In this document: positions 1,973 through 44,055 of the stretch, one piece after another
Layout: each line of letters opens with the position of its first letter
How positions within the stretch are numbered: the first letter of the stretch is position 1
DNA from: Patescibacteria group bacterium
GTDB lineage: Bacteria; Patescibacteriota; Patescibacteriia; UBA9570; JAHJKD01
Reading direction: 5' to 3'
NCBI GenBank assembly: GCA_018822435.1
Contig: JAHJKD010000050.1
Location: forward strand, 1,531-65,530
Length of the DNA stretch: 64,000 nt
Notes under the pieces: model-generated
Databases searched by the model: none
What the model saw: only the letters and a program-made list of their open reading frames with translations
Told to the model about the DNA's origin: nothing
Translations under genes and position numbers: made by a program

Positions 1973-2053
1973 TTATTTATGATAATTAATATTATTAGAT
2001 TTATATTTTACCATTCCGCTGATAATTTCTCAAGATATTATCAATGGGATGGG

Positions 2054-2086
2054 GGAGTTCGGAAAAGGAGGGGGAAACCGAACTCC
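2054..2086 (-). terminator. GC-rich hairpin downstream of the aminotransferase-like gene
   Basis: Perfect 9-bp inverted repeat GGAGTTCGG...CCGAACTCC with a 15-nt loop, about 30 nt past the stop codon. No clean U-tract follows. Confidence 0.4.
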
Positions 2087-2116
2087 GGGTGGGAAAAGGA
2101 AGGAAGGCGCCGCACA

Positions 2117-3265
2117 TCAGATCTCCGACGGATCCGGGACATCCGTATGCCACTCCGCGGGAATCTCGAATCCAGGCAGGAGCCGTTCGACCGTAGGCAT
2201 GTCCCGCCGGACCATGGCCCAGTAGGACTCGGCTGCTTTCGCCAGGAGGGGATGGGGCTCGCCGCGCCGTGCGAACGGGGCATCGATGGGCTTGGGATTG
2301 AGGCTGCGTTCCAGCCATTCGAGGTAGGCGTCGCCCTCGCCGTCATGGAAGACTCCCAGAGGCGGGTTCTCGTTGGTGGCTCGCATCACGGCCTGTACGG
2401 GCACGAAGCCGGACCAGGATCCAGAGACCGAAAATCCCTCGGCCTCGACCAGTTCGTGGCGGCTGACAGGCTTCTCTGCCACCGTGACACCCATGTGCTC
2501 GAAGATCTTGATCATGGTGGCCCGCGTCAGCCCGGGCAGGCACCACGAGTGCAGGTCAGGCGTGACCACGGTGTTCTCGTCCTGGAAGACGAAGAACAGG
2601 TTGGATCCGGTCGTCTCAGCCAGATCGTCTCCTTCGTGCGTCATGCCCAGGACTTCGTTGCAGCCGTACCACTTGGCCACCACGCCCTTGAACTTGGCGC
2701 CCAGGGGGTAGTTGGCCGCCGACTTGATGTGCGGGTAGCCGTTGTAGGGGCTGGCCCGCCGGAACAAACGTCCCGGGAAAAGCAAGTTGATGCCGAATTC
2801 GCCCTCAGGCAGTTTGAGGTACTCAGTCAGATCACGCGTGATGATCTGCCAGTCGGCCGTGCCCGTGGCGTGCACCCCGAGCTCTTCGCCCCAGGCCCCG
2901 CCGAAGATGCGGAGGTACACGTCCTGGGCCTGAGTCAGCTCAGCTGCGTTCAAAGAGGCAATCTTGACCATGGCCGTCAGAACTTGCTCGGCCGTAGGAA
3001 TCGTCTCCCGCGGCAAGCCCAGGGCCATCATATTCCGAACCAGTCGCCGAGCGTGGTCCGGACCGCGGAAGATGCGCCGCTTGCCGTCCGCGCACATCCA
3101 GGCTCCGGCCCCGCCGAAGATGCGTGTGCCGTAGTGGCCGTCGTGCCGGTACGGGCTGTGCCCGATCCCGCCGGTCTCGCGAATCTCGCCCTGGACGATC
3201 ATGTGGGTGTGATGGTAGGAACCATCCGCACCCTCGAAACTGTAAACCAAAGGCTTGACGCCCAT
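2117..3265 (-). CDS. Class IV (BCAT/DAAT-fold) aminotransferase-like protein; GC-rich island gene
   Basis: 382-aa ORF. The segments HDGHYGTRIFGG, HIKSAANYPLG and TGSNLFFV...TPDL...LPGLTRATMIKIFEHMGVTVAEKPVSRHEL...SGSWSGFVPV align in my reading with IlvE-type HALHYGTSVFEG, AAKAGGNY and GENLFEV...PGITRD...E. SD-like GGAAGGA lies about 10 nt upstream. The fully overlapping plus-strand ORF 1946..3289 is treated as a GC shadow. Confidence 0.75.
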   Translation of the reverse strand: MGVKPLVYSFEGADGSYHHTHMIVQGEIRETGGIGHSPYRHDGHYGTRIFGGAGAWMCADGKRRIFRGPDHARRLVRNMMALGLPRETIPTAEQVLTAMVKIASLNAAELTQAQDVYLRIFGGAWGEELGVHATGTADWQIITRDLTEYLKLPEGEFGINLLFPGRLFRRASPYNGYPHIKSAANYPLGAKFKGVVAKWYGCNEVLGMTHEGDDLAETTGSNLFFVFQDENTVVTPDLHSWCLPGLTRATMIKIFEHMGVTVAEKPVSRHELVEAEGFSVSGSWSGFVPVQAVMRATNENPPLGVFHDGEGDAYLEWLERSLNPKPIDAPFARRGEPHPLLAKAAESYWAMVRRDMPTVERLLPGFEIPAEWHTDVPDPSEI

Positions 3266-3405
3266 TTTCTTTTCCTTCCGTTAATGTGAGTTGTCAATTA
3301 ACTTTCTTATAATAAAACAGACCCCTCCTTTTTAGAACTCCTTTTTGGTCTGTATTAGCTTGTTTAAATTACTGGAAATACTAAAAAAAATCAAGCTTAA
3401 GTGAT

Positions 3406-3434
3406 TTGACATAAGCCAGGTAAAATAATAAGCT
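3406..3434 (+). promoter_or_regulatory. Sigma70-like promoter for 3475..4332
   Basis: TTGACA (3406-3411), 17-nt spacer, TAAGCT (3429-3434). Confidence 0.45.
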
Positions 3435-3474
3435 TTGGCCACCTTGACAACCTACCAAAAGGAGGGGGAAACCC

Positions 3475-4332
3475 ATGAAACTCACGACCGCACTGGTCAT
3501 CGCGTCCGCCATCACCTTCACTCCGTTTTGCTTCGCACAGATGGATGAAGGGCCCGAACCCGGGGCTGTCCGGTCACCGGGCGAGCCTGTCGACATGTGC
3601 CGCAGCCTTTATGGCTGGGTGCCCTGTTCCGAGGATATGGAGATCACTCATGTCTGTTTCGACCGGTCTTCCAGCTTCAACTGCCTTGACTGCACCATCA
3701 CCATGGCCCTGCTCGGCGTTCTCGATTCCGACCCGCAGAGCATGATCAACACGACCGCCGGCTGCCTCATGAACAACTTCACCCCGGAAGCCTGGGCCGA
3801 ACTCGAACACTGGGAGAAAGACTACACCAGCTCCCTGGGCCCGGCCTTGGCTGGCAAGGACATCGCCGACCTGCTCCAGAACAGTGTTTACATGGCCCGG
3901 TTTGCTTCCTACAATCTCATCTGCAAAGACAAGACCGAGGTGATCCCAGAATCCTTGACCGAGTACGTCACTTTCTGGCGAGAATCCTCCTGGGATGATC
4001 GCGCCCCCTTGCCGGTCATGATCGCCGAAGCTGCTTTTGAAGAGCATCTTGAAGCTCAAGCCTACCTCTTCTCCTTCAACTGCCTCGCCTTTTACCCGCG
4101 CACGCGTGGCAGCCCGCCCATCTACTTCACCCCGGAAGAAGACAGCGAAGCCGAACTTGGAGCCGCCTTGGTTGCTTTCCTTGCCCATCAAAAAATCACG
4201 GCCATCGCCGTGATCAAGGACTCGCCGGAGCAAGCTGCTCTAGAAGCCAAGGACTGGAAGGTCTGTCCTTCTGCCGCCACTGACAACTTCAACGTCGTCA
4301 TCCCCCCACCGATCGTCTACCACTTCCTCTGA
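3475..4332 (+). CDS. Secreted hypothetical protein; GC-rich island gene
   Basis: 285-aa ORF with signal-peptide-like N-terminus MKLTTALVIASAITFTPFCFAQ. Strong SD AAAAGGAGGGGGAAACC ends 1 nt before the ATG. GC-ending codons throughout. No family recognised. Confidence 0.7.
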   Translation: MKLTTALVIASAITFTPFCFAQMDEGPEPGAVRSPGEPVDMCRSLYGWVPCSEDMEITHVCFDRSSSFNCLDCTITMALLGVLDSDPQSMINTTAGCLMNNFTPEAWAELEHWEKDYTSSLGPALAGKDIADLLQNSVYMARFASYNLICKDKTEVIPESLTEYVTFWRESSWDDRAPLPVMIAEAAFEEHLEAQAYLFSFNCLAFYPRTRGSPPIYFTPEEDSEAELGAALVAFLAHQKITAIAVIKDSPEQAALEAKDWKVCPSAATDNFNVVIPPPIVYHFL

Positions 4333-4353
4333 TGCCGTCAAGGCACCTCATCG

Positions 4354-4386
4354 CCTCGGCAGTCTGCTACCCGCATTCTGCCGAGG
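4354..4386 (+). terminator. GC-rich hairpin after 3475..4332
   Basis: CCTCGGCAG (4354-4362) pairs with CTGCCGAGG (4378-4386), 22 nt after the stop. Confidence 0.45.
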
Positions 4387-4457
4387 CCGCCCACTTCTTG
4401 ACTTTTAAACAAAAATATGATAAAATTATTATAATAAAAAATCATTAATATAATTTT

Positions 4458-8382: not shown

Positions 8383-8512
8383 GTGTTCATATTCCTCATA
8401 CCAATTCGCGCCCGCGTATGATTCGCGGTAGTCTTCGCGATTGCCAATAAAAAAACGCCCAATGTTTGCCATTTGGACGCCGTAGTTATATATTAAAGGA
8501 AAGAATAACATT

Positions 8513-9190
8513 ATGCAACCATCGCAAGCTCGTGAAATATTGGCCCAAGTTAAGGCTGATTACGATAAAATTGCCCCTCATTTTGCTCAAACCAGGGCAC
8601 AAGGCTGGTCAGAATATGAGGAATTTAAGCCCTATTTAAAAAAAGGCGACGAAGTCTTGGATTTAGGCTGCGGCAATGGCCGTCTTGTTGAATTCCTAAT
8701 TCCTCTTGGAATTAAATACACAGGCTGTGATAATTCTAATCAATTATTAAAATTTGCGTCGGAAAAATATACTGACACCAAATTTGTCGTCGGTGACTTC
8801 ATGCATCCCCCTTTTGAAAAAGAAGAGTTTGATGTGGTCATGGCCATTGCCAGCTTGCATCATGTTCCTTCAGGGGAATTACGCCTGAGAGCCTTAAAAG
8901 AAATTTATCGTATTTTAAAACCAGGTGGATATCTGCTTATGACCAATTGGTATCTTTATCAAAAAAAATATAAGAAGTATATTAAAAATAATAAGGGCAA
9001 AATGGACAAAGGTGACGCCATAATCCCCTGGAAAGACAAATACGGAAATACCCAAGCAGAAAGATATTACCATGCCTTCAAACAAAAAGAGCTCAGCAAG
9101 CTAGCTAGGCAAATCGGTTTTAAAGTTATTTCCCAAAATATGAACGAATCAAAACAAGAAAGAAATATTGTCAGCATTTGGAAAAAATGA
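8513..9190 (+). CDS. Trm9/ALKBH8-like class I SAM-dependent methyltransferase
   Basis: 225-aa ORF. YDKIAPHFAQTR, LDLGCGNG, FDVVMAIASLHHV...RLRALKEIYRILKPGG, AIIPW and RYYHAFKQKEL align block by block with yeast Trm9 (YNEIAPHFSQTR, IDVGCGNG, FDFAISIAVVHH...GG, VFVPW, RYYHLYREGEL) as I recall it. Confidence 0.75.
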   Translation: MQPSQAREILAQVKADYDKIAPHFAQTRAQGWSEYEEFKPYLKKGDEVLDLGCGNGRLVEFLIPLGIKYTGCDNSNQLLKFASEKYTDTKFVVGDFMHPPFEKEEFDVVMAIASLHHVPSGELRLRALKEIYRILKPGGYLLMTNWYLYQKKYKKYIKNNKGKMDKGDAIIPWKDKYGNTQAERYYHAFKQKELSKLARQIGFKVISQNMNESKQERNIVSIWKK

Positions 9191-14289: not shown

Positions 14290-15576
14290 TTATTTTATCT
14301 TTTTGACTTCCTTCACAAACTGTTCCCCTCTCATAAATTCATTCATGACCGGCAACCAAGTCAAGCCAGGCGATAACAATATCACATCGCCCTCTTCGGA
14401 AAGCTCCCAGGCCTTTTTTACCGCGTCCTTCATGTCCACGGCTTCCAGGCCGGCGGGCAGGTCCTTATTGGCGTTGCCCGGCAGTAAAATCAAGATCTTG
14501 GCTTTCTTGGCGATCTCCTGGCTGAACTGCTTCAGATCTAATCCCTTGGAATTGCCTCCGGAAATCAGGATAATGTCATTTTCAAACGCACTCAAAGCCG
14601 CCACCCCCGCGTCCGGGCTGGTCGCGGTCGTGTCATTATAAAATTCCCGGCCCTGGTGTTCCCGCACCAGTTCCAGGCGGTTAGGCACGCCCCGGAAATT
14701 CTCCACTACCTGGCGCGCCGCCTTTTTCGACACCTTAAATATATCCGCCACTCTCATGGCCGCGTCGGCATTGGCCAGATTATGCCTGCCTTTGATGTGC
14801 TTGGGCGTGAAATCGATCTCTGTAAAATAATAGCCATAGGCCGGCGTATGATGGATCATCTTGTTTACGACCGGATCACGCCGGTTCAGCACGACATAAT
14901 CATCTTCGGTCTGATTTTTTAAAATATTTTCTTTGTCTTTCCTATACTCCGCCATAGATCTATAAAAATTCAGGTGATCAGGCAGTAAATTTGTCATCAC
15001 GGCCACATTAAATCTTTCTTTCTTCAGTTCATGCAACTGGAATGAAGAAACTTCTAAAACCACAATATCTCCTTTTTTTATATCATCCACAAAATTCAGG
15101 GGCGAATTGCCGACATTGCCTCCGATCCAGACTTTGTTCTTAAATTTCTTCCTTAATATCTCATAAATCAAAAAAGTCGTGGTCGTCTTACCCCGCGTGC
15201 CGGTCACGCCTACGACTTTTACGTCCTTGTCTTTTATTTCATTGAAAAAGAGAGAGAGGTCATTCACGATCGGGGTGCCTTCTTTTCCGGCCACGGCCAG
15301 ATATTCCGAATCCCAATGCACGCCCGGGTTCCGCACTACCAGATCCCGGCCTTTAAAATCTTCTTTCCTGTGTTTGCCTAAGACTAGCTGGATATTTTTA
15401 AATTTTTTCAGCTGATTTATTGTGCTGGGGTTTAATTGCGACTTTTTTTTATGATCTGTCACAATAACGCGCGCGCCTTTTCGCGCCAAAAACCGGGCCG
15501 CGGAAAAACCAGAGCCTTTTTCAATGACCCCGAGCCCCATGACCGTGATTTTTTTATCTTTATATGAATCAATCAT
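14290..15576 (-). CDS. murD: UDP-N-acetylmuramoylalanine--D-glutamate ligase
   Basis: 428-aa ORF with Mur-ligase P-loop GVTGTRGKTTTT and a C-terminal Mur ligase domain. Confidence 0.9.
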   Translation of the reverse strand: MIDSYKDKKITVMGLGVIEKGSGFSAARFLARKGARVIVTDHKKKSQLNPSTINQLKKFKNIQLVLGKHRKEDFKGRDLVVRNPGVHWDSEYLAVAGKEGTPIVNDLSLFFNEIKDKDVKVVGVTGTRGKTTTTFLIYEILRKKFKNKVWIGGNVGNSPLNFVDDIKKGDIVVLEVSSFQLHELKKERFNVAVMTNLLPDHLNFYRSMAEYRKDKENILKNQTEDDYVVLNRRDPVVNKMIHHTPAYGYYFTEIDFTPKHIKGRHNLANADAAMRVADIFKVSKKAARQVVENFRGVPNRLELVREHQGREFYNDTTATSPDAGVAALSAFENDIILISGGNSKGLDLKQFSQEIAKKAKILILLPGNANKDLPAGLEAVDMKDAVKKAWELSEEGDVILLSPGLTWLPVMNEFMRGEQFVKEVKKIK

Positions 15577-16573
15577 TTGCTACTCCCAGGCCCACGACTT
15601 TCCTCACATTCTCCATGGTCGGCTGTGCCAGCTTGGCCGCTTCTTTAGCCCCATTCGTTAAAATCTTTTCCAGCTTAGGCTGATCATCAATATATTCTTT
15701 ATATTTTTTCTGAATCGGTTCAATAAATTCCACCACGGCTTCGGCCAGGCCTTTCTTGAAATCGCCATAACCTTTGCCCGCATATTCCTTTTCCAAAGAT
15801 TTTATATTTTTTTCCGTCACCAGCGAATAAATAGTCAACAAATTAGAAATCGCCGGTTTTTTCTCCTCGTCAAATTTCACCTCTGACCCGGAATCTGTCA
15901 CTGCCTTCATGATCTTCTTCCTGATTTTGTCCGGTTCATCGGTCATGGCAATGTAATTATTTCCACTACTCGCTGATTTGCTCATTTTTGATGTCGGATC
16001 ATCTAATCCCATAATTCTGGCGCCCACTTCCGGCAACAGTGCTTCCGGCTCTTCAAACACCTGGCCATATTTATTGTTCACTCTATGGGCAATGTCCCGT
16101 GTCAGCTCGACATGTTGTCTCTGATCTTCGCCCACTGGAACTTTATTGGTCTGATATAAAAGAATATCCGCTGCCATCAAGGCCGGATAAGTGAATAAAC
16201 CAGCATTAATATTTTGCTTATGCCTTTGTGATTTATCTTTAAATTGCGTCATGCGCTCCAATTCACCCATTTGCGTATTGCAATTCAGCACCCATGCTAA
16301 TTCTGTATGTGCTGAAACATCTGACTGCACAAATATAATCGCCTTTTTCGGATCTAATCCTGACGCCAGATAAATCGCCGCTAGTTCTCTGATATTTTTC
16401 TGCAGTTCTTCCGGCTCCTGCTGTACCGTAATCGCATGCATATCCACAATGCAAAAAATGGAAAAATATTTATCCTGTAAATCAATCCATTGTTTGATCG
16501 CACCAAGATAATTTCCTAAGTGAATTACACCGCTAGGTTGTATGCCTGAAAATACTATTTTTTTATTTGTCAT
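15569..16573 (-). CDS. trpS: Tryptophan--tRNA ligase
   Basis: The track ORF (15569..16903) carries a 110-aa extension running through the neighbouring GC island. The conserved protein starts at MTNKKIVFSGIQPSGVIHLGNYLGA (ATG 16573-16571) and contains KMSKS. Confidence 0.92.
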   Translation of the reverse strand: MTNKKIVFSGIQPSGVIHLGNYLGAIKQWIDLQDKYFSIFCIVDMHAITVQQEPEELQKNIRELAAIYLASGLDPKKAIIFVQSDVSAHTELAWVLNCNTQMGELERMTQFKDKSQRHKQNINAGLFTYPALMAADILLYQTNKVPVGEDQRQHVELTRDIAHRVNNKYGQVFEEPEALLPEVGARIMGLDDPTSKMSKSASSGNNYIAMTDEPDKIRKKIMKAVTDSGSEVKFDEEKKPAISNLLTIYSLVTEKNIKSLEKEYAGKGYGDFKKGLAEAVVEFIEPIQKKYKEYIDDQPKLEKILTNGAKEAAKLAQPTMENVRKVVGLGVAND

Positions 16574-16596
16574 AAAATAATTATACAATAAAAAAT

Positions 16597-16619
16597 ACCG
16601 TCTATCAAGCAGACTTTTT
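16597..16619 (+). terminator. Conserved hairpin family, degenerate copy 0
   Basis: ACCGTCTATCAAGCAGACT plus a T-run. It keeps the CTATCAAGC loop region of the family. Confidence 0.45.
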
Positions 16620-16690
16620 CCTTGACTATATCTCAATAAAAAGCTAAAAATACCCCACCACCCGTACCACCACCAAGGAGGAAAAAATCC

Positions 16691-16948
16691 ATGAAAGCGA
16701 GAATCATCGACCCTGGCACAAATTCTTTGGTCCTCTGGCTCATAGTCGAGGTGAATGAAGGCGAAATCGCCATCAAGCCCAGTAAAGGGGGGATCGAAGT
16801 AGCTGTGTTCGTCTCCGGCTGGTTTCCGGACACAATCATCGGGGAGACTGAGGTGCCGGAAGATTTGGTCGAGAAGGCAGTCGCCCATCTCCGGACCAAG
16901 CACGAGCTCGACCAGCTGGCCAACCAGCTCAAGGAGATCCTGCGCTGA
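16691..16948 (+). CDS. Hypothetical 85-aa protein; GC-rich island gene
   Basis: SD AAGGAGG lies 9 nt upstream. TTGACT-N17-TAAAAA(T) promoter at 16622-16651. GC-ending codons. Followed by an imperfect GC hairpin (about 16950-17000) and family hairpin copy 1. Confidence 0.6.
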   Translation: MKARIIDPGTNSLVLWLIVEVNEGEIAIKPSKGGIEVAVFVSGWFPDTIIGETEVPEDLVEKAVAHLRTKHELDQLANQLKEILR

Positions 16949-17026
16949 GTGGAGGGGGCGGGCGGCGGCTCATCAAAAAGCTGCCGTCCTCCCTCCAATC
17001 TAGTAACAATCACTTCATATAAAAAC

Positions 17027-17053
17027 GGCCCGCCTATCAAGCGAATTTTTTTT
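17027..17053 (+). terminator. Conserved hairpin family, copy 1 (right arm degenerate)
   Basis: GGCCCGCCTATCAAGCGAA followed by T8. Confidence 0.5.
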
Positions 17054-17115
17054 ATTCTTGTAAAAAAAGGATTTTTGTAGTATAAAGGAACCACCTAAGT
17101 ATTTACTTCAAACAT

Positions 17116-17934
17116 ATGAAAAAAATATTCTTATTCCCTATTCTGGGCATTTTATTATTTACTATTAATTTCTTAGCGACTCCTTCAACCAAAGCATTTA
17201 GCACCGCCACTCATCCCATAGTTATAGATAATATATTAATGGGAGGATCGGGAAATGATGTTTGGATAGATGCTTCATATGGTAAGTATTGGGATTTAAA
17301 AGGAAAAAAATACAAGTTGTATAAAATGCGTTCTTATATTGGCAAAGGTACGGGCAGTGGAATATACCAAGGCCCTCCATCCATGACAGAAATTGTGAGA
17401 ATGAAAAATAATGGGACATATCTGAATAATTTTGTGGCCATCAGAAGCAATTGGAAATTTTTCCCTCAAAAGATAAGGAAGGGCAGTAAAAAATCTCCTA
17501 CTTATAAAAAAGTTATCAAAAAAATATTACGCAGGAATGATTTAGGCCATTTAAAGCCAAAGATCAAACAAATTTACAAAGTTGACCTGGATGGTAATGG
17601 CACCAAAGAAAAAATTATTCATGCTTCCAATATTGATTTTAATAATCCAAATTACTATCAGGAAAAAAATACTTATTCAGTCGTATTTGTAAGAAAGTTA
17701 GTAAATGGAAAAAAGAAAAATATTATTTTGAGGAAAAGCTTTTACACAGAAGACGGAGATTTTGAAGACGGCCCTACATATTCGCATCGCATCCGCGCTA
17801 TCGGCGATTTTAACGGGGATGGAAGAATGGAGGTCGTAGTTGAGACAAGATACTATGAAGGAACTGGATTTTCAATCTTTGAAGTAAAAAAGAAAAAAGC
17901 CGTGCCTGTACTCAGTAACGGCTCAGGAGCATAA
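17116..17934 (+). CDS. Secreted protein with a C-terminal FG-GAP/VCBS-like repeat
   Basis: 272-aa ORF with signal peptide MKKIFLFPILGILLFTINFLATPSTKA and IGDFNGDGRMEVVVE near the C-terminus. Confidence 0.6.
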   Translation: MKKIFLFPILGILLFTINFLATPSTKAFSTATHPIVIDNILMGGSGNDVWIDASYGKYWDLKGKKYKLYKMRSYIGKGTGSGIYQGPPSMTEIVRMKNNGTYLNNFVAIRSNWKFFPQKIRKGSKKSPTYKKVIKKILRRNDLGHLKPKIKQIYKVDLDGNGTKEKIIHASNIDFNNPNYYQEKNTYSVVFVRKLVNGKKKNIILRKSFYTEDGDFEDGPTYSHRIRAIGDFNGDGRMEVVVETRYYEGTGFSIFEVKKKKAVPVLSNGSGA

Positions 17935-17946
17935 TATAAATAAAAC

Positions 17947-17971
17947 GACCCGCCTTCCAAGCGGGTCTTTT
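17947..17971 (+). terminator. Conserved hairpin family, copy 2
   Basis: GACCCGCCTTCCAAGCGGGTC plus TTTT, directly after the stop. Confidence 0.7.
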
Positions 17972-18023
17972 CTTATTTAAAAAAAATATGATATTATTAC
18001 ATTGAAAGGAATAAATTATATTT

Positions 18024-18761
18024 ATGGCAAATAATATGGAAGGGCGACGGCCAGCTCAAGAGCTGGAGTCAGCCAAAAATGTTACTAAAGAAGAGCTGGA
18101 AAAAATCGCCAAGAAAAAATTGAATTTTATGGTGAAAAAGGATGGATTAATTCTTGCTAGCTCGTTTGAAGATCTCAATTTGGGGGATGATGCCCAAGAC
18201 ACTGAAGGCAGTCCTTATGAATGGTTCCAAATCTTTGATGAAAAAGACCATCCCTACCGAATTGAAGGTAATGATGTCGTTCTTTATCGGAAGGAATGTC
18301 ATGGAAAAGGAAGAATTGAGAACGTTTATCATCGCGGCACCGATGTTTGGATAGTGAACCCAAAGAACGAACTCATGGTCCCTGTTAGAAGTGCAAAAAA
18401 AGACCTCTACTCCTCTATGGGAGACAACAGTGTAAGTGAACATAATAGCATAAGAGAGCCGTATTTAGGCACTGCCGTTAGGGGTTTCCAAGAAGAGCTT
18501 GGAATATCGGTCCCCCCTGAAGGACTATCCCTTGTGTGCAAATTTCCAGTGCATGATAAAAATCAATGGCAATGGTCTCAATATTACGTATTTCCCGATA
18601 AAGAAGGAAAATATAATCCGTCTGAAGAAGAAATAGGGGAAGTCCGCTGGATTCCCTTACAAAATTTATTTACAGAGGAAGGGATAAAAAAAATAAATTT
18701 TCGACTAGACCATTTACCCGCTCTAAAAGTATTTCTAGAAAAAATAAAAAATAAAAAATAA
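18024..18761 (+). CDS. Nudix hydrolase (IDI-like subfamily)
   Basis: 245-aa ORF with a Nudix box region GTAVRGFQEELGI and an upstream ...HRGTDVWIVNPKNELMV... layout. Confidence 0.7.
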   Translation: MANNMEGRRPAQELESAKNVTKEELEKIAKKKLNFMVKKDGLILASSFEDLNLGDDAQDTEGSPYEWFQIFDEKDHPYRIEGNDVVLYRKECHGKGRIENVYHRGTDVWIVNPKNELMVPVRSAKKDLYSSMGDNSVSEHNSIREPYLGTAVRGFQEELGISVPPEGLSLVCKFPVHDKNQWQWSQYYVFPDKEGKYNPSEEEIGEVRWIPLQNLFTEEGIKKINFRLDHLPALKVFLEKIKNKK

Positions 18762-18766
18762 AAAAA

Positions 18767-18793
18767 CGCCCGCCTATCAAGCGGGTCTTTTTT
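18767..18793 (+). terminator. Conserved hairpin family, copy 3
   Basis: CGCCCGCCTATCAAGCGGGTC followed by T6. Confidence 0.7.
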
Positions 18794-18832
18794 ATCCCTT
18801 TACATTCAGACTTTTTTTGATAAAATATCAAT

Positions 18833-19531
18833 ATGGGAGAAAAATACGAATACAATCAAAGTGGTGCAGAAGCCTACAAAGAATTAGGTATCGAGGGAAC
18901 TACATATGAAATGTCATTCTCTGAGATGAAAAGGATGCTTGGAAATATTCAAGGCATGAATTTTTTAGATTTCGGCTGCGGTTCAGGTCGTAGCGCACGA
19001 TTCCTAAAAACTCTCGGCGCTAAAAACGTCATTGGTGTTGATCATAATGAATCTATGATAAAACAGGCCAAGGCAACGGCAGTACAAGGGATTGATTTCA
19101 GGCTGATCAAAGAAAAAATTCCTCTAGACGATGATTCCGTTGACGGCGTAATTAGTTCAGCAGTTTTCTTAGAAATAAAAAATTTGGCTGATATGGAAAA
19201 AACGGCCAGGGAAATTGCCCGAGTTCTCAAGCCCGGTGGCGTATTCATACTAGTTACCGTAAATCCGGACGCCTTCGGGCATGATTTTGTAAGTTTTACC
19301 AGAACAGGAAACCCTGCAGAACTCGAAAGCGGCGATATGACTGAATGCCGGATGAAAGGAAAAAAACCATTTGTAATAGATGATATATTCTGGACCGAAG
19401 ACGATTATAGACAAGTGCTTGAATCAGCCGGTTTTACCATCGAAGATATTGTTTTCCCGAAAGCAGAATCAGGTAATTGGCTGGATGAAACAAATGTCGC
19501 ACCTGATATGGTCATAAAAGCAACAAAATAA
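18833..19531 (+). CDS. Class I SAM-dependent methyltransferase
   Basis: 232-aa ORF with motif I FLDFGCGSGR and a later LKPGGVFILV. The promoter TTTACA-N16-(TGa)TAAAAT ends 6 nt before the ATG, so the mRNA is possibly leaderless. Confidence 0.8.
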   Translation: MGEKYEYNQSGAEAYKELGIEGTTYEMSFSEMKRMLGNIQGMNFLDFGCGSGRSARFLKTLGAKNVIGVDHNESMIKQAKATAVQGIDFRLIKEKIPLDDDSVDGVISSAVFLEIKNLADMEKTAREIARVLKPGGVFILVTVNPDAFGHDFVSFTRTGNPAELESGDMTECRMKGKKPFVIDDIFWTEDDYRQVLESAGFTIEDIVFPKAESGNWLDETNVAPDMVIKATK

Positions 19532-19534
19532 AAC

Positions 19535-19561
19535 GACCCGCCTATCAAGCGGGTCTTTTTT
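19535..19561 (+). terminator. Conserved hairpin family, copy 4
   Basis: GACCCGCCTATCAAGCGGGTC followed by T6. Confidence 0.7.
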
Positions 19562-19614
19562 AATTTTTTAACCACTTCTTCTGAACACCAAAATTTGATA
19601 TACAAAAGAAGGGG

Positions 19615-19646
19615 CGGGGGCATGGTTCTTGCGAACGCAGCCCCCG
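19615..19646 (-). terminator. GC hairpin terminator of 19678..19923
   Basis: On the minus strand, CGGGGGC-18 nt-GCCCCCG is followed by CCCCTTCTTTTGTAT. Confidence 0.5.
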
Positions 19647-19677
19647 TTTGATCCCGTAAACTACCGAAGCATCCACG

Positions 19678-19923
19678 TCACTCTTCATCCTCGTCCTTCG
19701 TATCCTCCTCTTCTTTTTCCTCATTTTTTTCCTGAACAAGACGTGCGATGCTTTCAGGAATCTGACTGACTAGTAAACCTAAGAAGAAAAGAGACAGTGC
19801 TATAGCCATACAAAGCACGACAATCGCAACCTCTGCGTTCCCATTGAAAACACATATGCAAGCCAAACCAGAAGAGAGGAAAAAAGTAGCCATCCATAAA
19901 GGGAATACGATACTTTTTGTCAT
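19678..19923 (-). CDS. Small membrane protein (81 aa, two predicted TM helices, acidic tail); GC-rich island gene
   Basis: SD AGGAGG lies 5-6 nt upstream of the ATG. Two hydrophobic stretches, FPLWMATFFLSSGLACICVF and VAIVVLCMAIALSLFFLGLLV, are followed by an EEKEEEDTKDEDEE tail. Confidence 0.6.
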   Translation of the reverse strand: MTKSIVFPLWMATFFLSSGLACICVFNGNAEVAIVVLCMAIALSLFFLGLLVSQIPESIARLVQEKNEEKEEEDTKDEDEE

Positions 19924-20023
19924 GGTAACCTCCTAATAGGTGGATGAAGTTGTTAACGGTCGCCTGTTCCGGATTCGCCGGCAACTTATTTTGCCGACTA
20001 AATCACTAGATACAGGATAGGCG

Positions 20024-20052
20024 ACCTTACCATTTCAGCGATCCCTTGTCAA
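20024..20052 (-). promoter_or_regulatory. Sigma70-like promoter for 19678..19923
   Basis: Minus strand TTGACA (20052-20047), 17-nt spacer, TAAGGT (20029-20024). About 100 nt of GC-rich 5' UTR follows. Confidence 0.4.
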
Positions 20053-20085
20053 TAGTCGCTCTTGAATAATTATTATCAATAAAAA

Positions 20086-20110
20086 CACCCGCCTATCAAG
20101 CGGGTCTTTT
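20086..20110 (+). terminator. Conserved hairpin family, copy 5 (no plus-strand gene precedes it)
   Basis: CACCCGCCTATCAAGCGGGTC plus TTTT. Confidence 0.6.
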
Positions 20111-20168
20111 CTTTAATAAAAATAATATTTCTGATATATTTAATCATATCTAGATAAATAAACATTTT

Positions 20169-20639
20169 ATGCCACAAAATAATTCAAGACCAGCTAAAAA
20201 ACCTTTTACGGAAAACGAACAAGTTCTTCTAAGGAATAAAGCAATTGATAAAATCAAAGACCTTTTTCTGCCTAATGATAAAATTCTGAAAATAATTCTT
20301 ATTGGATCTTCTGTGAAGGGATCTTTTGGGGAATATGGACCGCCCGGTTTCAGAAACAGCCTATTTTCTGATTTTGATTTCATTTTCTTTGTAAAAGACG
20401 ATTATGAAATTCCTGATTGGTTAAAAAAAGAACCGTCGGGAAAACCTTTCACTGACGACAGTCTTAATCTTGCCTATCGCAACGCAAAAATGGTCGACGA
20501 TAAATATGATATCGAATTTTTCTTTATCAGGGAAGAGAATCTGGATGATAATAATTTTATCGAAGAAGGAGAAGGGGCAGGCATTCCTTTGAAAAAGAAT
20601 TCAAAAATTGAACATCTGACTATTTTTGAAAAAAAATAA
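20169..20639 (+). CDS. Nucleotidyltransferase-fold protein (Pol-beta/MNT-like)
   Basis: 156-aa ORF with LIGSSVKGSFG...SDFDFIFFV, matching the GS-x(n)-DxD pattern. Confidence 0.65.
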   Translation: MPQNNSRPAKKPFTENEQVLLRNKAIDKIKDLFLPNDKILKIILIGSSVKGSFGEYGPPGFRNSLFSDFDFIFFVKDDYEIPDWLKKEPSGKPFTDDSLNLAYRNAKMVDDKYDIEFFFIREENLDDNNFIEEGEGAGIPLKKNSKIEHLTIFEKK

Positions 20640-20643
20640 AAAC

Positions 20644-20670
20644 GATCCGCCTATCAAGCGGGTCTTTTTT
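20644..20670 (+). terminator. Conserved hairpin family, copy 6
   Basis: GATCCGCCTATCAAGCGGGTC followed by T6. Confidence 0.7.
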
Positions 20671-20696
20671 ATTTAAAGTAATTTTAGAAAAATAGT

Positions 20697-20722
20697 GGGA
20701 CTGAATGTAAGGATTCAGTCCC
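20697..20722 (-). terminator. GC hairpin terminator of 20758..21156
   Basis: GGGACTGAAT-GTAAGG-ATTCAGTCCC (10-bp perfect stem), followed on the minus strand by ACTATTTTTCT. Confidence 0.6.
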
Positions 20723-20757
20723 GGGGGAAACAACCGCGCCTTACCGCGGGTGCGACG

Positions 20758-21156
20758 CTAGGCCACTTCGTCGAAGTAGTCCCAGCGCGCCTCATCGATC
20801 TCCTCCACGACCGCCTCGCACATCATGTAGATCATGACGTCGCGCAGCGTGATGTGAGCGGAATGGTCGACGTTGCACTCGAAACCGCAGTAGCACTCAC
20901 AGCAAGATTCCTCGCGGACACCGACGATGCCTCTAGCGGTCTGATCCAGATCCAGCCCATCCAGCATCATGTCCTCGGTGTAGCGGAACAGGACGGCGTC
21001 GGTCATATCCGACGCGCGACCGTAAGCCGCCCGCCAGGTCGAGTCCGTCTCCTTCCACCAGTGATCCGGGCCGAAATGGTCCATGATCCGGCGAGCGAGC
21101 CGCTCGATCAGGTAGGAGGAATCATGCCGGTTACCCTTTTGTTGTACGTTCATCAC
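20758..21156 (-). CDS. Hypothetical acidic 131/132-aa protein; GC-rich island gene
   Basis: SD AAGGAG lies 7 nt upstream of the ATG at 21153 (a GTG at 21156 is also possible). GC-ending codons and a Cys-rich patch CCECYCGFEC. No family recognised. The plus ORF 20695..21264 is a shadow. Confidence 0.6.
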   Translation of the reverse strand: MMNVQQKGNRHDSSYLIERLARRIMDHFGPDHWWKETDSTWRAAYGRASDMTDAVLFRYTEDMMLDGLDLDQTARGIVGVREESCCECYCGFECNVDHSAHITLRDVMIYMMCEAVVEEIDEARWDYFDEVA

Positions 21157-21232
21157 GTATCTCCTTTCAGGAGTTTTACCGCACCTGCTCCATGCAGGAC
21201 GGCGATGGCAATGCCATCATTGAGGGTCAATC

Positions 21233-21261
21233 TGTATATCACATTTTTTCAATTTTGTCAA
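21233..21261 (-). promoter_or_regulatory. Sigma70-like promoter for 20758..21156
   Basis: Minus strand TTGACA (21261-21256), 17-nt spacer, TATACA (21238-21233). Confidence 0.4.
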
Positions 21262-21279
21262 TAGTAATCCATAAAAATA

Positions 21280-21308
21280 TTGACAAATTCTATAATATTT
21301 GCTAATAT
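21280..21308 (+). promoter_or_regulatory. Sigma70-like promoter for 21343..22083
   Basis: TTGACA (21280-21285), 17-nt spacer, TAATAT (21303-21308). Confidence 0.5.
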
Positions 21309-21337
21309 TTACATAGGTTTACATAGGTTTACATAGA
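21308..21337 (+). repeat. Three tandem 10-bp direct repeats (candidate operator)
   Basis: TTTACATAGG TTTACATAGG TTTACATAGA, between the -10 box and the ATG at 21343. Confidence 0.85.
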
Positions 21338-21342
21338 TTATT

Positions 21343-22083
21343 ATGAAAGAAAAATTACATTCAATCGGAGAAACAGCTAACATTATTGGAGTTTCTATTG
21401 ATACTCTACGAAAATGGGATAAAAAAGGCATTTTGCCTTCTTTTCGACCTTCACCTACCAGTAAAAGATACTATCGCCAAGAAGATATTGATGCTTTTTT
21501 AGCAAAAGAAACCCAACTAGATCTGAAATCCATGGCTGAAAAATGGGCCATTGATCCATCTCCTTCTCCCCTGTCCCCGGAATTATATTGCCAGACAAGC
21601 GATGTTTTTCATGCTCGCCTGCAACATCTAGAGGTAGAAATAGCCCGCGTACCTAAATTAAAAGATATTTTTCCCTTAATCGTCGCTGTTATTGGTGAAA
21701 TCGGCAATAATTCTTTCAACCATAACATTGGCAATTGGCCGGATGAGCCAGGCATATTTTTTGGATACGACCTAAAAAACCGCCAAGCTGTTCTGGCTGA
21801 CCGAGGCCAAGGCATCTTAAAAACTCTGAAGCGTGTAGTGCCGGATTTGAAAAACGACCAAACTGCCCTAAAAGTTGCTTTCACCGAATATATTTCCGGC
21901 CGCGCCCCCGAAGACAGGGGCAATGGCCTGAAATTCGTCCGGGACGTAGTGACGGAAAATCCGATACAGCTAAAATTCTTTACCGGTGAGGCGCAACTGG
22001 AGTTAGAACAAAATACAGCTGATTTAGATATTAAAAAAAGCGATCTTTCCTTCCATGGCTGCATCGCCATAATAAATTTCTAA
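21343..22083 (+). CDS. MerR-type HTH fused to a GHKL (RsbW/SpoIIAB-like) ATPase/kinase domain
   Basis: 246-aa ORF. N-terminus IGETANIIGVSIDTLRKWDKKGIL...YYRQEDID is a MerR-type HTH. C-terminus has an N-box-like EIGNNSFNH, a G1-like DRGQGI and a G2-like GNGLKF. Confidence 0.7.
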   Translation: MKEKLHSIGETANIIGVSIDTLRKWDKKGILPSFRPSPTSKRYYRQEDIDAFLAKETQLDLKSMAEKWAIDPSPSPLSPELYCQTSDVFHARLQHLEVEIARVPKLKDIFPLIVAVIGEIGNNSFNHNIGNWPDEPGIFFGYDLKNRQAVLADRGQGILKTLKRVVPDLKNDQTALKVAFTEYISGRAPEDRGNGLKFVRDVVTENPIQLKFFTGEAQLELEQNTADLDIKKSDLSFHGCIAIINF

Positions 22084-22100
22084 CATCCTAATCCTATACT

Positions 22101-22385
22101 ATGAATATTTATCTAAAAAAATTTGGTACTACTCTCGTTTCCCGGCCGGCCGGCAAAGAGGCTTGGCTCGCGCTCCAACCCAATCTTAAGGAATTAGAAG
22201 AAAACGAAAAAATAATTATTGATTTCAAAGGCGTGGCCGTGCTTACCCCTTCCTGGGCGGATGAAGTCGTCTCACCTTTAAAAGACAATTTTCAAAATCA
22301 GATCAGTCTGATAAATACGGAAAATCCGTCTGTCCAAGCCACATTAACTACACTAAAAAAAGCAAAGCAAGACCAAAAATCTTAG
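22101..22385 (+). CDS. STAS-like (DUF4325-type) protein
   Basis: 94-aa ORF. Its size and the pattern ...SRPAGKEAW...IIIDFKGV..LTPSWADEV... match the STAS-like DUF4325 family as I recall it. It lies 18 nt downstream of the GHKL gene. Confidence 0.55.
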   Translation: MNIYLKKFGTTLVSRPAGKEAWLALQPNLKELEENEKIIIDFKGVAVLTPSWADEVVSPLKDNFQNQISLINTENPSVQATLTTLKKAKQDQKS

Positions 22386-22466
22386 TAAAAATTAAAATTT
22401 TATTAATATTTGAATCCATCTATTGATACAATGTATACAAACTTTCTTAGATGTACATGAAAAATA

Positions 22467-22493
22467 ATTCCGCCGTTCAAGCGGGTCTTTTTT
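22467..22493 (+). terminator. Conserved hairpin family, variant copy 7
   Basis: ATTCCGCCGTTCAAGCGGGTC followed by T6. Confidence 0.5.
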
Positions 22494-22547
22494 GACTTAT
22501 CTATGCAAATTGCTATAAAATAGAATAGTAAACAAAAAAATAATTTC

Positions 22548-23021
22548 ATGAACAAGCAAGAAGCCCGAAGACCGACTCCTGAAAAACAAGAAATAAAAAA
22601 AGTTGAAATTGGCAATCTCGATGAGTTTGATATGGATTATTTCCACCAATTAGAGGGCGAAGACGGTTGGATCGCTATAGGACAAGATAATTGCCAAAAC
22701 CAAAAATATTTCACTCTAGGAGGAACAGAAGGAGACAAACTAGGAATAATCGGTGTTTTTGACACGGATGAAGATTCAAATATCACCCACACTGTAATTG
22801 ATCCAAAATTCCGTGGTCAAAGGCTGGCCAGCCGAGCCAAGCACGAATTGATGGACAAACTGAATCTGCCTTTTATTACTATGATAATAGATTTGGATAA
22901 TCTTCCCTCTATCAAAGCGACAGAAAAAATCCCTGGCGTTAAAAGAGTGAGCGATGATACTTATGAAGAAGAATTTCATAAGGTCAAACTTGTTTATGAA
23001 AAACCTCCAACAAATACCTAA
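22548..23021 (+). CDS. Putative GNAT-family acetyltransferase
   Basis: 157-aa ORF. VIDPKFRGQRLASRAKHELMDKL resembles GNAT motif A. Weak call. Confidence 0.45.
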   Translation: MNKQEARRPTPEKQEIKKVEIGNLDEFDMDYFHQLEGEDGWIAIGQDNCQNQKYFTLGGTEGDKLGIIGVFDTDEDSNITHTVIDPKFRGQRLASRAKHELMDKLNLPFITMIIDLDNLPSIKATEKIPGVKRVSDDTYEEEFHKVKLVYEKPPTNT

Positions 23022-23037
23022 AAATTAACTTAAAAAC

Positions 23038-23427
23038 ATGCTAGAATCATTTGAAGTTTCCGATATATTCCCGGTCAGCCCAGAAGAATTATATTCTGCC
23101 TGGTTAGATAGTAAAAAACATGGTGCCTTTACTGGCAGCAAAGCCAAAATCGATCCTAAAGTCGGGGGAAAATTTACGGCTTGGGACGGATACATTGAAG
23201 GTGAGACTGTAAAGCTCGAACCAAATAAAAAAATCTTGCAAAAATGGCGCACGACTGAATTCCCTGAAGATAGCAAGGATTCAAAACTTGAATTAATATT
23301 TGAGGAAGTTGATGAAGGCACTAAACTGACTATTAAACATTCTGATGTGCCTGAAGGCCAAGCGAAAAACTATAAACCAGGTTGGGATGAATCTTATTTC
23401 CAGCCCATGCAAGAATATTTTGAATAA
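23038..23427 (+). CDS. SRPBCC/AHSA1-domain protein
   Basis: 129-aa ORF. PEELYSAWLDSKKHGAFTG...GGKFTAWDGYIEGE...LQKWR... is typical of Aha1-like SRPBCC proteins. Confidence 0.65.
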   Translation: MLESFEVSDIFPVSPEELYSAWLDSKKHGAFTGSKAKIDPKVGGKFTAWDGYIEGETVKLEPNKKILQKWRTTEFPEDSKDSKLELIFEEVDEGTKLTIKHSDVPEGQAKNYKPGWDESYFQPMQEYFE

Positions 23428-23446
23428 TTAAAAATAAAATAATTTT

Positions 23447-24718
23447 ATGGAAGAAAAGATTTCTGAAAAAAAGGAAGTTGTCACAGAACCAAATCCAAAA
23501 CCAAAGAAAAAAAAGTCGACTCTAATTATAATTATTGTCATTGTTATTATAGCCCTACTATTGATCGGCAGTGTAATTGGCGTAGGAATTTATTTTTGGT
23601 CAAAATCAAACCAAGAAAAGCAAGATCAAGCCGCCCTCCAAATGCAATTAGAAGGCTTAGTCGCTGAAGCAGAAACATATATTGACGATTACGAATATGA
23701 ACCAGCCATTAAGGCGGCCACGCAAGCCATAAATTTAAGCCAAAATTATGTCCCGGCGTTAATAACCCGGTGTAAAGCCTACCGCAAAGACGAACAATAT
23801 GAAAAAGCTTATGCTGATTGCGACAAAGCCATTGAACTGAATCCGAATTCTGCCCGCGCTTATCATAACCGGGCCTACATTTATTTAAATGAGGAAAAAT
23901 ATGAAAAAGGCATTGCCGACGCCCAGAAAGCGATTGAATTAAATCCGCAAAACGCAAAAGGCTACACGGCATTATGTTGGGCCTACGGCGATCAAGGCAA
24001 ATATGAAGATGCCACCCTGCAATGCAACAAAGCCATTGAACTTGACCCCAACGATGACTTTCCGCACAGCCTGATTTGTTATGACTTGCGCGAACTAGGA
24101 AAAACAGAAAAGGCTCTCCAAGAATGCAATGAAGCGATTGAACTTGACCCGGAATATTCCTGGGCTTACCGCAACCGCGCCCTTGTCTATGAGGATAAGG
24201 AAAATTGGGACAAAGTCATTGCTGACACAACTAAGGCAATCAAATTAAGAGAAGACTTTGCCCATGCCTATGATATTCGCGGCTTCGCTTATTTTAAGCA
24301 AAAAAAATATAATAAAGCTAAGGAAGATTATAATAAAGCCATTAAGCTTGATCCGGAAAATGAATATTTTTTCTATGACCGTGCTTATTTAAACGAAAAA
24401 CAAGGCGACTGCGATAAAGCCATTGAAGATTACACCAAAGCGATTGAAATATACAAAGATTACCAGCAGGCTTATTCCAGCCGCGGTTATTGTTATACGG
24501 AATTAGAAAAATGGGACAAAGCGATTGATGATCTTAAAAAAGCCGTCAAACTGGACCCGAAAGATAAATACGCATTTAACAATCTTGGTTATGCCTATGA
24601 TAATCTTGAAGATTATGACAATGCTCTAAAATACTACGAAAAAGCGGTTGAACTTGATCCTGATTATGAAATCGCGATTGAAAATGTAAAAGGATTAAAA
24701 GAATTCCTTAATCAATAG
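23447..24718 (+). CDS. Membrane-anchored tetratricopeptide (TPR) repeat protein
   Basis: 423-aa ORF with an N-terminal TM segment (LIIIIVIVIIALLLIGSVIGVGIYFW), then about ten 34-aa repeats of the form A..Y.KAIELDP....AY.NRG. Confidence 0.85.
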   Translation: MEEKISEKKEVVTEPNPKPKKKKSTLIIIIVIVIIALLLIGSVIGVGIYFWSKSNQEKQDQAALQMQLEGLVAEAETYIDDYEYEPAIKAATQAINLSQNYVPALITRCKAYRKDEQYEKAYADCDKAIELNPNSARAYHNRAYIYLNEEKYEKGIADAQKAIELNPQNAKGYTALCWAYGDQGKYEDATLQCNKAIELDPNDDFPHSLICYDLRELGKTEKALQECNEAIELDPEYSWAYRNRALVYEDKENWDKVIADTTKAIKLREDFAHAYDIRGFAYFKQKKYNKAKEDYNKAIKLDPENEYFFYDRAYLNEKQGDCDKAIEDYTKAIEIYKDYQQAYSSRGYCYTELEKWDKAIDDLKKAVKLDPKDKYAFNNLGYAYDNLEDYDNALKYYEKAVELDPDYEIAIENVKGLKEFLNQ

Positions 24719-37554: not shown

Positions 37555-37668
37555 GAGTGTATTATATAAAACGAACTAGAATTTGAAAAGAAGGAGGGGG
37601 AGGATTTCGGGAGGGGGAGGAGGATCCGAGGGGTTATGCCGAAGCAAAACCACACGGACCTCCTTCCC

Positions 37669-37998: not shown

Positions 37999-38063
37999 CT
38001 CTCTGCCTCCTTTAAATACTCACCCCCTTGCAGGGGGCTATGCGGCTTGATTGCCGACGGTAA

Positions 38064-44047: not shown

Positions 44048-44055
44048 CACCTCTC

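Follow-up and report, generated by a model that had tools for sequence, protein, structure and literature searches.

Terminator-like hairpin repeats at the unit boundaries of a variable gene islet in a Patescibacteria genome, with a possible role in gene shuffling

Patescibacteria have tiny genomes with few recognisable mobile elements, so the acquisition and turnover of their accessory genes are poorly understood. Can a short repeated hairpin take part in this turnover? The question is raised by a window of 64,000 nucleotides (the whole stretch analysed here, from contig JAHJKD010000050.1 of assembly GCA_018822435.1), with a mean G+C content of 41%. The window is chromosomal: it carries genes for SHMT, phosphoglycerate mutase, murD, trpS, RNase J, uvrABC, EF-P, groES/EL, recA, ftsK and guaA. 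Between trpS and the genes for a TPR protein and a giant surface protein lies an islet of accessory genes: mostly units of one gene, with the same structured site recurring between them, as an earlier interpretation made from the letters of the window (the sequence-only reading) had noticed. We favour, with moderate confidence, the view that these hairpins are repeated intrinsic terminators, specific to this lineage, whose short portable homology is used by ectopic recombination in a plasticity islet.

The copies share a common anatomy: an A-tract, usually AATAAAA, a stem of seven base pairs (GACCCGC/GCGGGTC), a loop of 7 nucleotides, and a T-tract. Aligning the copies with their flanks confines the similarity to about 35 to 45 nucleotides; the flanks themselves are unrelated. 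A repeat finder reports one family of eight copies, 34 nucleotides each. The 15-mer core CCGCCTATCAAGCGG, allowing at most 3 mismatches, has eight matches in the window, all on the + strand, against about 1.1 expected, and none of 100 shuffled sequences reaches eight. A covariance model, called R1, scores the eight copies from 42.7 to 59.3 bits. The three approaches agree with the sequence-only reading on the position and strand of all eight elements. The exact sequence that it quoted, the 21-mer GACCCGCCTATCAAGCGGGTC, occurs only once in the window, at 19535; five sites are within 3 mismatches of it, with 0.00 expected. Nor is the loop invariant, as had been claimed: CTATCAA is found in six of the eight copies, CTTCCAA at 17947, and CGTTCAA at 22467. 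Conservation is higher in the 3' half, TCAAGCGGGTCTTTT, than in the 5' arm, and this is true also of the site nearest trpS in two genomes. All eight copies have the same orientation and lie inside 5.9 kb of the 64 kb, for which we estimate a probability of about 5e-7 under uniform placement. From left to right, with their folding energies, they are:

16588..16621, + strand: c1, degenerate copy ACCGTCTATCAAGCAGAC, left boundary of the islet; -2.5 kcal/mol
17020..17053, + strand: c2, degenerate 3' arm, 78 nucleotides past the stop codon of a GC-rich open reading frame (ORF) of 85 amino acids (aa); -3.3 kcal/mol
17940..17973, + strand: c3, or "allele B", with loop CTTCCAA and T-tract TCTTTTCTTATTT, 12 nucleotides past the stop codon of a 272-aa gene; -13.4 kcal/mol
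18760..18793, + strand: c4, with the stop codon of a Nudix hydrolase gene within its own A-tract; -13.0 kcal/mol
19528..19561, + strand: c5, the sole exact match to the 21-mer, with a methyltransferase stop codon in its A-tract, left repeat of a 551-bp indel; -13.5 kcal/mol
20079..20112, + strand: c6, right repeat of the indel; -10.6 kcal/mol
20637..20670, + strand: c7, 4 nucleotides past the stop codon of a putative nucleotidyltransferase gene; -14.0 kcal/mol
22460..22493, + strand: c8, weaker stem, loop CGTTCAA, 81 nucleotides past a STAS-like gene; -7.0 kcal/mol

The observation is real but had been idealised. The stem, attributed to every copy, is stable in five of them, c3 to c7 (hairpins at 17947, 18767, 19535, 20086 and 20644), which fold at -10.6 to -14.0 kcal/mol with z-scores of -3.9 to -5.0 against shuffled sequences; the outer three, c1, c2 and c8 (16597, 17027 and 22467), fold no better than shuffles. 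Similarly, the statement that each copy sits right at a stop codon is true of four, at 3 to 12 nucleotides (gaps of 12, 5, 3 and 4); two others are about 80 nucleotides away (78 and 81), and two lie behind no + strand gene. The stop codons of three genes are inside the element's own A-tract. A stem-loop followed by a T-run, the anatomy of an intrinsic terminator, is found in five copies, c1, c2 and c8 being too weak, and we infer that the hairpins function as Rho-independent terminators, probably bidirectional ones.

Could the repeat be the generic terminator of this organism? Within the window this candidate is rejected. The other terminator-like hairpins have sequences unrelated to the islet family, in agreement with the earlier claim that the repeat is unlike ordinary terminators, and R1 finds one distant extra match, of 31.8 bits, at 47731-47770 (AAAAACACCCGAATATCATCGGGTATTTTT), all remaining matches being below 20 bits. 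This ninth hairpin, next to a 3' fragment of tRNA-Met that has been displaced, is probably the native terminator of this tRNA. Because it resembles the family, the islet hairpins seem to derive from the kind of terminator that this genome ordinarily uses, without being of that kind themselves. Searches with exact 18- to 21-mers in 185,579 species-representative (GTDB) genomes, JGI metagenomes and IMG/VR yielded chance matches only, on contigs that are unrelated and have 54-66% GC; the genomes returned did not include the source genome. Rfam has nothing at gathering score, and its sub-threshold matches are to models that end in intrinsic terminators.

The evidence that the copies interact comes from comparison with related genomes. 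The same population is represented by three NCBI metagenome-assembled genomes (MAGs), including GCA_018814995.1 (contig JAHIYR010000040.1) and GCA_018825215.1, and by several Logan contigs, all with identical proteins in identical order. A closer relative, R2, is known from two ENA contigs of separate assemblies (ERZ24794671 and ERZ24794666), L022 and L023, which are 1.2-1.5 kb long at 2-4x coverage. L011 is a Logan contig from SRR17165146 whose TrpS is 90% identical to that of the window. More distant sets consist of relatives at 83% TrpS identity and of three contigs that show other contexts of the nucleotidyltransferase gene (L024, L025 and L026). In all, the comparison is based on one lineage and three genomes.

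In R2, the 3' end of the methyltransferase gene, whose homologue is partly present, is followed by one hairpin, the nucleotidyltransferase gene (88% amino acid identity), a second hairpin, and a homologue of a 131-aa gene. The counterpart in the window reads methyltransferase, c5, a unit with an 81-aa gene, c6, nucleotidyltransferase. Positions 15-422 of L022 align to 19152-19559 of the window, positions 390-1514 align to 20078-21197, and the two alignments overlap only in the hairpin. Moreover, the single hairpin of R2 is a hybrid in a three-way alignment: its left flank follows c5, and its right flank follows c6. The 551 bp between c5 and c6 are thus a repeat-bounded indel:

19535..20085: indel unit of 551 bp, made of one hairpin copy and a complete inverted module of promoter, 81-aa ORF and terminator; absent from R2

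The second hairpin of R2 is also composite. It has the 5' arm and the outer flanks of c7, but the loop CTTCCAA and the T-tract TCTTTTCTTATTT of c3, which makes four linked differences; over 45 nucleotides it is 95.6% identical to c3. Such a mosaic is the signature of ectopic gene conversion, or of exchange, between copies. Finally, divergence changes across a hairpin. Between the window and R2, the synonymous divergence (dS) amounts to 0.52 in the nucleotidyltransferase gene and 0.57 in the 131-aa GC-rich gene (66% amino acid identity, dN/dS about 0.39), against 1.72 in the methyltransferase gene, on the other side of the single hairpin. The corresponding proportions of synonymous differences (pS), 0.37 versus 0.67, are by our estimate about 4 standard errors apart. 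This jump indicates that the adjacent units probably had different histories.

L011 has the same flanks as the window, with pgm, murI, murD and trpS on one side and the genes for the TPR and giant surface proteins on the other, and a different gene set in between: only the nucleotidyltransferase gene is common to both islets (73% amino acid identity). The nucleotide homology on the trpS side extends to 16619, where c1 has its 3' edge; the block around the nucleotidyltransferase gene ends at 20641, three bases before c7; homology then resumes at 23745, within the TPR gene. L011 has two members of the hairpin family, one per islet end and in the same orientation: one ending in CGCTTTTCAAGCGGGTCTTTTT beside trpS, which keeps the loop and the 3' arm at the position of c1, and GGCCCGCTCATCAGGCGGGTCC before the TPR gene. 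Its nucleotidyltransferase gene is followed by a different terminator, then by an unrelated GC-rich inverted gene. At 83% TrpS identity, relatives have no islet and no hairpin, and a LytR gene lies directly beside trpS; the nucleotidyltransferase contexts of L024, L025 and L026 contain neither the hairpin family nor another repeat family. The variation in gene content anticipated by the sequence-only reading thus exists among relatives, in L011 and R2, and is not seen within the sampled population. One candidate for such a polymorphism was rejected: the accession of the 81-aa protein is absent in the third MAG, and its gene call is absent in one contig, yet the DNA is 100% identical, and the difference is one of gene calling.

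The genes of the islet and of its immediate flanks are:

15569..16573, - strand: trpS (Pfam tRNA-synt_1b), conserved left flank
16691..16948, + strand: GC-rich orphan of 85 aa, GC 0.56, third-position GC 0.73, strong AGGAGG ribosome-binding site (RBS)
17116..17934, + strand: 272-aa protein with a signal-peptide-like N-terminus, GC 0.34, FG-GAP match below the Pfam cut-off
18024..18761, + strand: Nudix hydrolase of 245 aa (Pfam PF00293, E 1.9e-7), GC 0.39
18833..19531, + strand: class I S-adenosylmethionine-dependent methyltransferase of 232 aa (Pfam Methyltransf_11, E 1.2e-20), GC 0.41
19678..19923, - strand: membrane-like ORF of 81 aa with an acidic tail, GC 0.415, weak PHROG match only, within the 551-bp indel unit
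20169..20639, + strand: putative nucleotidyltransferase of 156 aa, GC 0.33, Pol-beta match below the Pfam cut-off
20758..21153, - strand: Cys-rich, GC-rich orphan of 131 aa, GC 0.60, third-position GC 0.80
21343..22385, + strand: two-gene unit identified by Pfam, a MerR-type helix-turn-helix (HTH) protein of 246 aa and a STAS-like DUF4325 protein of 94 aa, GC 0.42 and 0.40
22548..23427, + strand: genes for a GNAT-like protein of 157 aa and an AHSA1/SRPBCC protein of 129 aa, in the variable stretch, with no hairpin after them; absent from L011
23447..24718, + strand: TPR protein, conserved right flank together with a convergent gene for a surface protein of 1679 aa

Pfam thus bears out the labels Nudix, methyltransferase, MerR-type HTH and STAS-like DUF4325 given by the sequence-only reading; FG-GAP and Pol-beta nucleotidyltransferase stay below the cut-offs, and a GHKL domain is confirmed neither by Pfam nor by a sequence search of the PDB. 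Composition is indeed mixed, the GC content of the ORFs ranging from 0.33 to 0.60, but the truly GC-rich genes are only those at 16691-16948 and 20758-21153: the gene at 19678-19923, described as an inverted GC orphan, does not qualify. Several units are orphans. The 85-aa protein has no match in Pfam, PADLOC, PHROG or by tblastn against phages, and the 131-aa protein has only 3 representative clusters, without taxonomy, in 1.84 billion proteins. A defence-island or phage origin was considered and rejected: PADLOC and PHROGs give generic domain matches only, neither GC-rich orphan has a match by tblastn against phages, and no viral-contig relatives of the nucleotidyltransferase and methyltransferase were found. 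Promoter-like sites lie behind several hairpin copies, outside the repeat itself; that of c8 is TTGACT-18-TAAAAT, at 22492-22521, into which its T-tract runs, and belongs to the next gene. The inverted units carry their own promoter-like site, RBS and hairpin, and in this the units resemble phage "morons". Around an inverted gene, too, the hairpin stays on the + strand; it is therefore no 3' tag that moves along with its gene.

Some observations concern single units. The family of the 156-aa putative nucleotidyltransferase is about 60% identical across many Patescibacteria and DPANN archaea (Woese-, Nano- and Aenigmarchaeota), and this conservation across domains is unusually high for a small accessory protein. 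The ORF of the MerR-type protein (21343-22083) is unannotated in the NCBI record and called in Logan contigs; the C-terminal half shows, by eye, GHKL-like N, G1 and G2 motifs. Between a promoter-like site and its start codon, at 21310-21339, stand three tandem copies of TACATAGGTT, the last of which reads TACATAGATT; they are a candidate operator. This gene and the divergent GC-rich gene have back-to-back TTGACA boxes at 21237-21304. Further right, the 28 nucleotides before the GNAT start (22523-22550) and before the TPR start (23422-23449) are 82% alike, and the spacer between c8 and the GNAT gene weakly resembles the spacer between hairpin and TPR gene in L011 (6870-6940). This hints that an ancestral hairpin and promoter may have stood before the TPR gene until the GNAT and AHSA1 genes were inserted in between; in AT-rich sequence, the likeness could be due to chance.

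The GC-rich genes of the islet have counterparts elsewhere. Patches of 54-64% GC in this 41% G+C genome are found at 2041-4400, 16650-17000, 20700-21200, 37581-38060, 47465-47686 and 52521-52888, and in L011 at 8466-8858. Each is a single gene in an intergenic slot, several with a strong AGGAGG RBS; among them are a class IV aminotransferase of 382 aa, a secreted-looking protein of 285 aa, and orphans of 73 to 131 aa. The 17-mer AAAAGGAGGGGGAAACC occurs twice, at 2063-2079, in the RBS region of the gene for the 285-aa protein, and at 3457-3473, in a hairpin loop downstream of the aminotransferase gene. The only boundary motifs common to GC-rich inserts are hairpins and the promoter-like ACTATTGACAA. 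In a relative at a dS of about 0.57, the 131-aa gene still has 0.80 GC at third positions, and the unrelated GC-rich gene of L011 stands at the matching position.

How might terminators take part in the turnover of such units? Under the reading that we favour, each unit would be largely self-contained, with a promoter-like site, one or few genes, and a terminator, and the terminators would insulate independently transcribed accessory genes. Being near-identical and direct, they would also serve as short portable homology. Ectopic recombination between copies would homogenise them by gene conversion and delete the intervening unit, and would probably also insert or swap units. The pathway acting at the repeats would likely be RecA-dependent short-homology exchange or replication slippage; insertion could occur when an excised circle re-enters the chromosome at a different copy, or when DNA acquired from relatives with the same repeat is exchanged. 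Such recombination would account for the homogeneity of the copies, for the hybrid hairpin of R2 (by deletion or reverse insertion), for its mosaic hairpin, and for the change of divergence. A gene shuffling mediated by terminators was among the possibilities raised by the sequence-only reading, and it is the one that the comparative evidence favours. It would work like the modular shuffling mediated by promoter-early stem-loops (PeSLs) in T4-type phages, rather than like an integron. PeSLs are short conserved intergenic repeats with a terminator stem-loop, in a hyperplastic region rich in orphan genes (PMC2839356; PMC4122927). An orphan gene of phage RB49 lies between two PeSLs where phage phi1 has a single chimeric PeSL, and mini-circles have been detected (Arbiol et al. 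2010, PMC2839356); modular shuffling by PeSLs is also treated by Comeau et al. (2014, PMC4122927).

Several points weigh against this proposal. The case is currently thin, with one lineage and three genomes, and both the copy count and the recombinase search cover the 64-kb window, a part of the genome. Since the contigs of R2 are short and of low coverage, the indel and the jump in dS might both be artefacts of a chimeric join within the repeat; the two assemblies do agree, however, and the mosaic hairpin is not open to this doubt. The direction of the indel cannot be told from the data; it may be a deletion only, and a role of the repeats in the gain of units, beside their loss, is inferred. 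Homology boundaries must fall in short spacers of about 70-120 nucleotides anyway, which makes their coincidence with hairpins in L011 only weakly informative, and no variation of the islet is seen within the population, in three MAGs and several Logan contigs. No covariation was found in the stem, because the copies are too alike; the structure therefore rests on thermodynamics and anatomy, and the terminator function of the hairpins on sequence. The promoter is not conserved as part of the repeat, unlike in PeSLs. For RecA-dependent exchange, 24-45 bp of homology come close to the minimum. Lastly, how the repeat came to follow unrelated genes lies outside what the proposal accounts for.

The hairpins could instead be passive terminators, related to one another by local duplication and gene conversion, in an islet that varies by unrelated illegitimate recombination and deletion, the repeats being causal only in occasional slippage deletions. 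We hold this for unlikely, although a good part of the data would fit it: breakpoints must fall in short spacers regardless, the single clean repeat-bounded indel is explained by a deletion, the nucleotidyltransferase gene of L011 has a different terminator, the GNAT and AHSA1 genes vary without a flanking hairpin, and the family-like terminator of tRNA-Met at 47731-47770 suggests a generic stem type. What it leaves unexplained is that the same 35-45 nucleotides, with their loop, bracket unrelated genes, one of them inverted, that one hairpin is a mosaic, and that dS jumps exactly across a hairpin. At the other extreme, the hairpin would be the site of a dedicated recombinase encoded elsewhere, integron-like, Xer-like or of the HUH type, that captures and excises cassettes. 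Unidirectional copies at unit boundaries, a conserved asymmetric loop that gives polarity, and hybrid sites would all suit such a system, and the better conservation of the 3' half is the one feature that hints at it. Yet among the ORFs of at least 70 aa in the 64 kb, a screen for recombinase, integrase and transposase domains found no Phage_integrase or other recombinase domain, no HUH domain, and no transposase or Y1/RAYT domain; RecA, FtsK and UvrD are encoded in the window. There are no attC cores (RYYYAAC/GTTRRRY) within 60-80 nucleotides of any copy, no attC-like pair in the islet, and no dif-like pattern there, even with 1 mismatch; the site is much shorter than attC, three copies are too degenerate to fold, and the database searches with 18- to 21-mers give no sign of a widespread system. 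A dedicated system is therefore improbable. The same degree of doubt applies to a more speculative version, in which the hairpin would be the minimal, terminator-shaped recombination site of a gene-capture platform of the Candidate Phyla Radiation, with a recombinase elsewhere or a repeat-duplicating insertion as in CRISPR adaptation, c1 being the entry site and the GC-rich genes the newest captures.

Two other explanations concern the hairpin itself. As a selfish mini-element akin to repetitive extragenic palindromes (REPs) or miniature inverted-repeat transposable elements (MITEs), the palindrome would copy itself into intergenic regions, for example with a RAYT-type transposase, and its use as a terminator would be secondary. 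Its size of about 35 nucleotides, its palindromic nature, its extragenic position and the near-identity of copies with unrelated neighbours would be in character. The arrangement is not: all copies have one orientation within one 5.9-kb islet instead of being dispersed, no target-site duplications or GTAG-type head are visible around them, no relative shows presence or absence of a hairpin without a change in gene content, and the window has no Y1/RAYT or other transposase gene. This explanation is more doubtful still than a dedicated system. We consider as the least probable of all that the loop is kept for regulation, whether by binding a protein or RNA that coordinates expression or mRNA stability, or as a minus-strand -35 box, TTGATA. 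Copy c1 is upstream of the divergent trpS start, and its minus-strand loop is the -35 box of the best trpS promoter-like site, TTGATA-17-TATAAT, which agrees at 11 of 12 positions (16608-16580); we read the equivalent in L011 as TTGAAA-17-TATTAT. Copy c6, which precedes the nucleotidyltransferase gene and flanks the inverted 81-aa gene at its 5' end, has on its minus strand TTGATA-16-GATAAT, facing the inverted gene, and the islet encodes a MerR-type regulator. But most copies have no minus-strand gene to drive, two have other loops, binding is a candidate function only, and neither the indel nor the mosaicism would be explained.

The window contains two other sets of repeats. An exact direct repeat of 42 nucleotides, at 47775-47816 and 49829-49870, corresponds to the 3' end of tRNA-Met (49829-49901, minus strand). 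The two repeats bracket about 2 kb with an excisionase-like HTH ORF (47996-48205) and ORFs of 180 and 283 aa without family matches, and a BRO-N gene (46466-47281) adjoins them, the whole region extending over 46466-49901. The repeats look like the attachment (att) sites of a decayed integrated element; no integrase for such an element was found. Two long perfect palindromes with stems of 20 bp and the common arm TGTAGTGTAGGGACA, at 44054-44097 after uvrA and at 56244-56286 beside recA, form a second repeat family, unrelated to the hairpins of the islet.

It remains to compare the islet with known systems. A CRISPR array is ruled out: the spacings, of 430-1823 nucleotides, contain genes, while CRISPR spacers have about 26-72 nucleotides between repeats of 21-48. 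Integrons, to which the sequence-only reading had likened the islet, also have unidirectional arrays of mostly single, unrelated small genes with a structured imperfect palindrome behind each, mixed composition, and content that varies among relatives, as it does between the window and L011 or R2. The resemblance does not extend to mechanism, where it fails on every defining feature that could be tested, and the differences listed by the same reading all hold. There is no intI in the 64 kb; the repeat has 35-45 nucleotides against 57-141 for attC, lacks the R''/L''/L'/R' organisation and GTTRRRY cores, and has the appearance of a canonical terminator, T-tract included; the units come with promoter-like sites of their own, and the repeat stays in + orientation at inverted genes. 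REPs and bacterial interspersed mosaic elements (BIMEs) are likewise extragenic palindromes of about 35 nucleotides downstream of genes, where they can terminate transcription or stabilise mRNA; REPs are scattered over the whole genome in either orientation, with a RAYT, in contrast to one islet, one orientation and no RAYT in the 64 kb. The pdif sites of Acinetobacter plasmids are short imperfect palindromes with an asymmetric centre, and they bracket accessory modules that differ between relatives; they are AT-rich XerC/XerD sites of 28 bp, with a centre of 6 nucleotides, in alternating orientation, whereas the islet copies are all direct and without dif-like arms. Phage morons and neisserial minimal mobile elements share with the islet the self-contained units of promoter, gene and terminator, the deviant composition, the conserved flanks, and the different content at the same site in relatives. 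Their terminators are unrelated, or they rely on long flanking homology, whereas the islet has one terminator at every boundary.

The closest comparison is with PeSLs, with differences of setting and scale. The islet is on a cellular Patescibacteria chromosome, not in a phage; a PeSL has about 100 bp and includes a conserved sigma-70 promoter, compared with about 35-45 nucleotides here, limited to the terminator and its A/T tracts; PeSL phages have about 50 copies per genome, compared with 8 in a single islet. In both systems, terminator stem-loop repeats are concentrated in a hyperplastic region with orphan genes, here with all 8 copies in the variable islet; upstream stop codons fall in the AT-rich part of the repeat; two repeats around a gene in one genome correspond to one chimeric repeat in a relative, here on short low-coverage contigs; and a dedicated recombinase is involved in neither, here as far as the 64 kb show. 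If the hairpins of the islet do provide both insulation and the homology through which units are added, removed or swapped, then PeSL-type shuffling would extend beyond T4-like phages: it would offer a general route, without a recombinase, to a "poor man's integron", and a simple sequence signature would help to find such plasticity islets among metagenome-assembled genomes.

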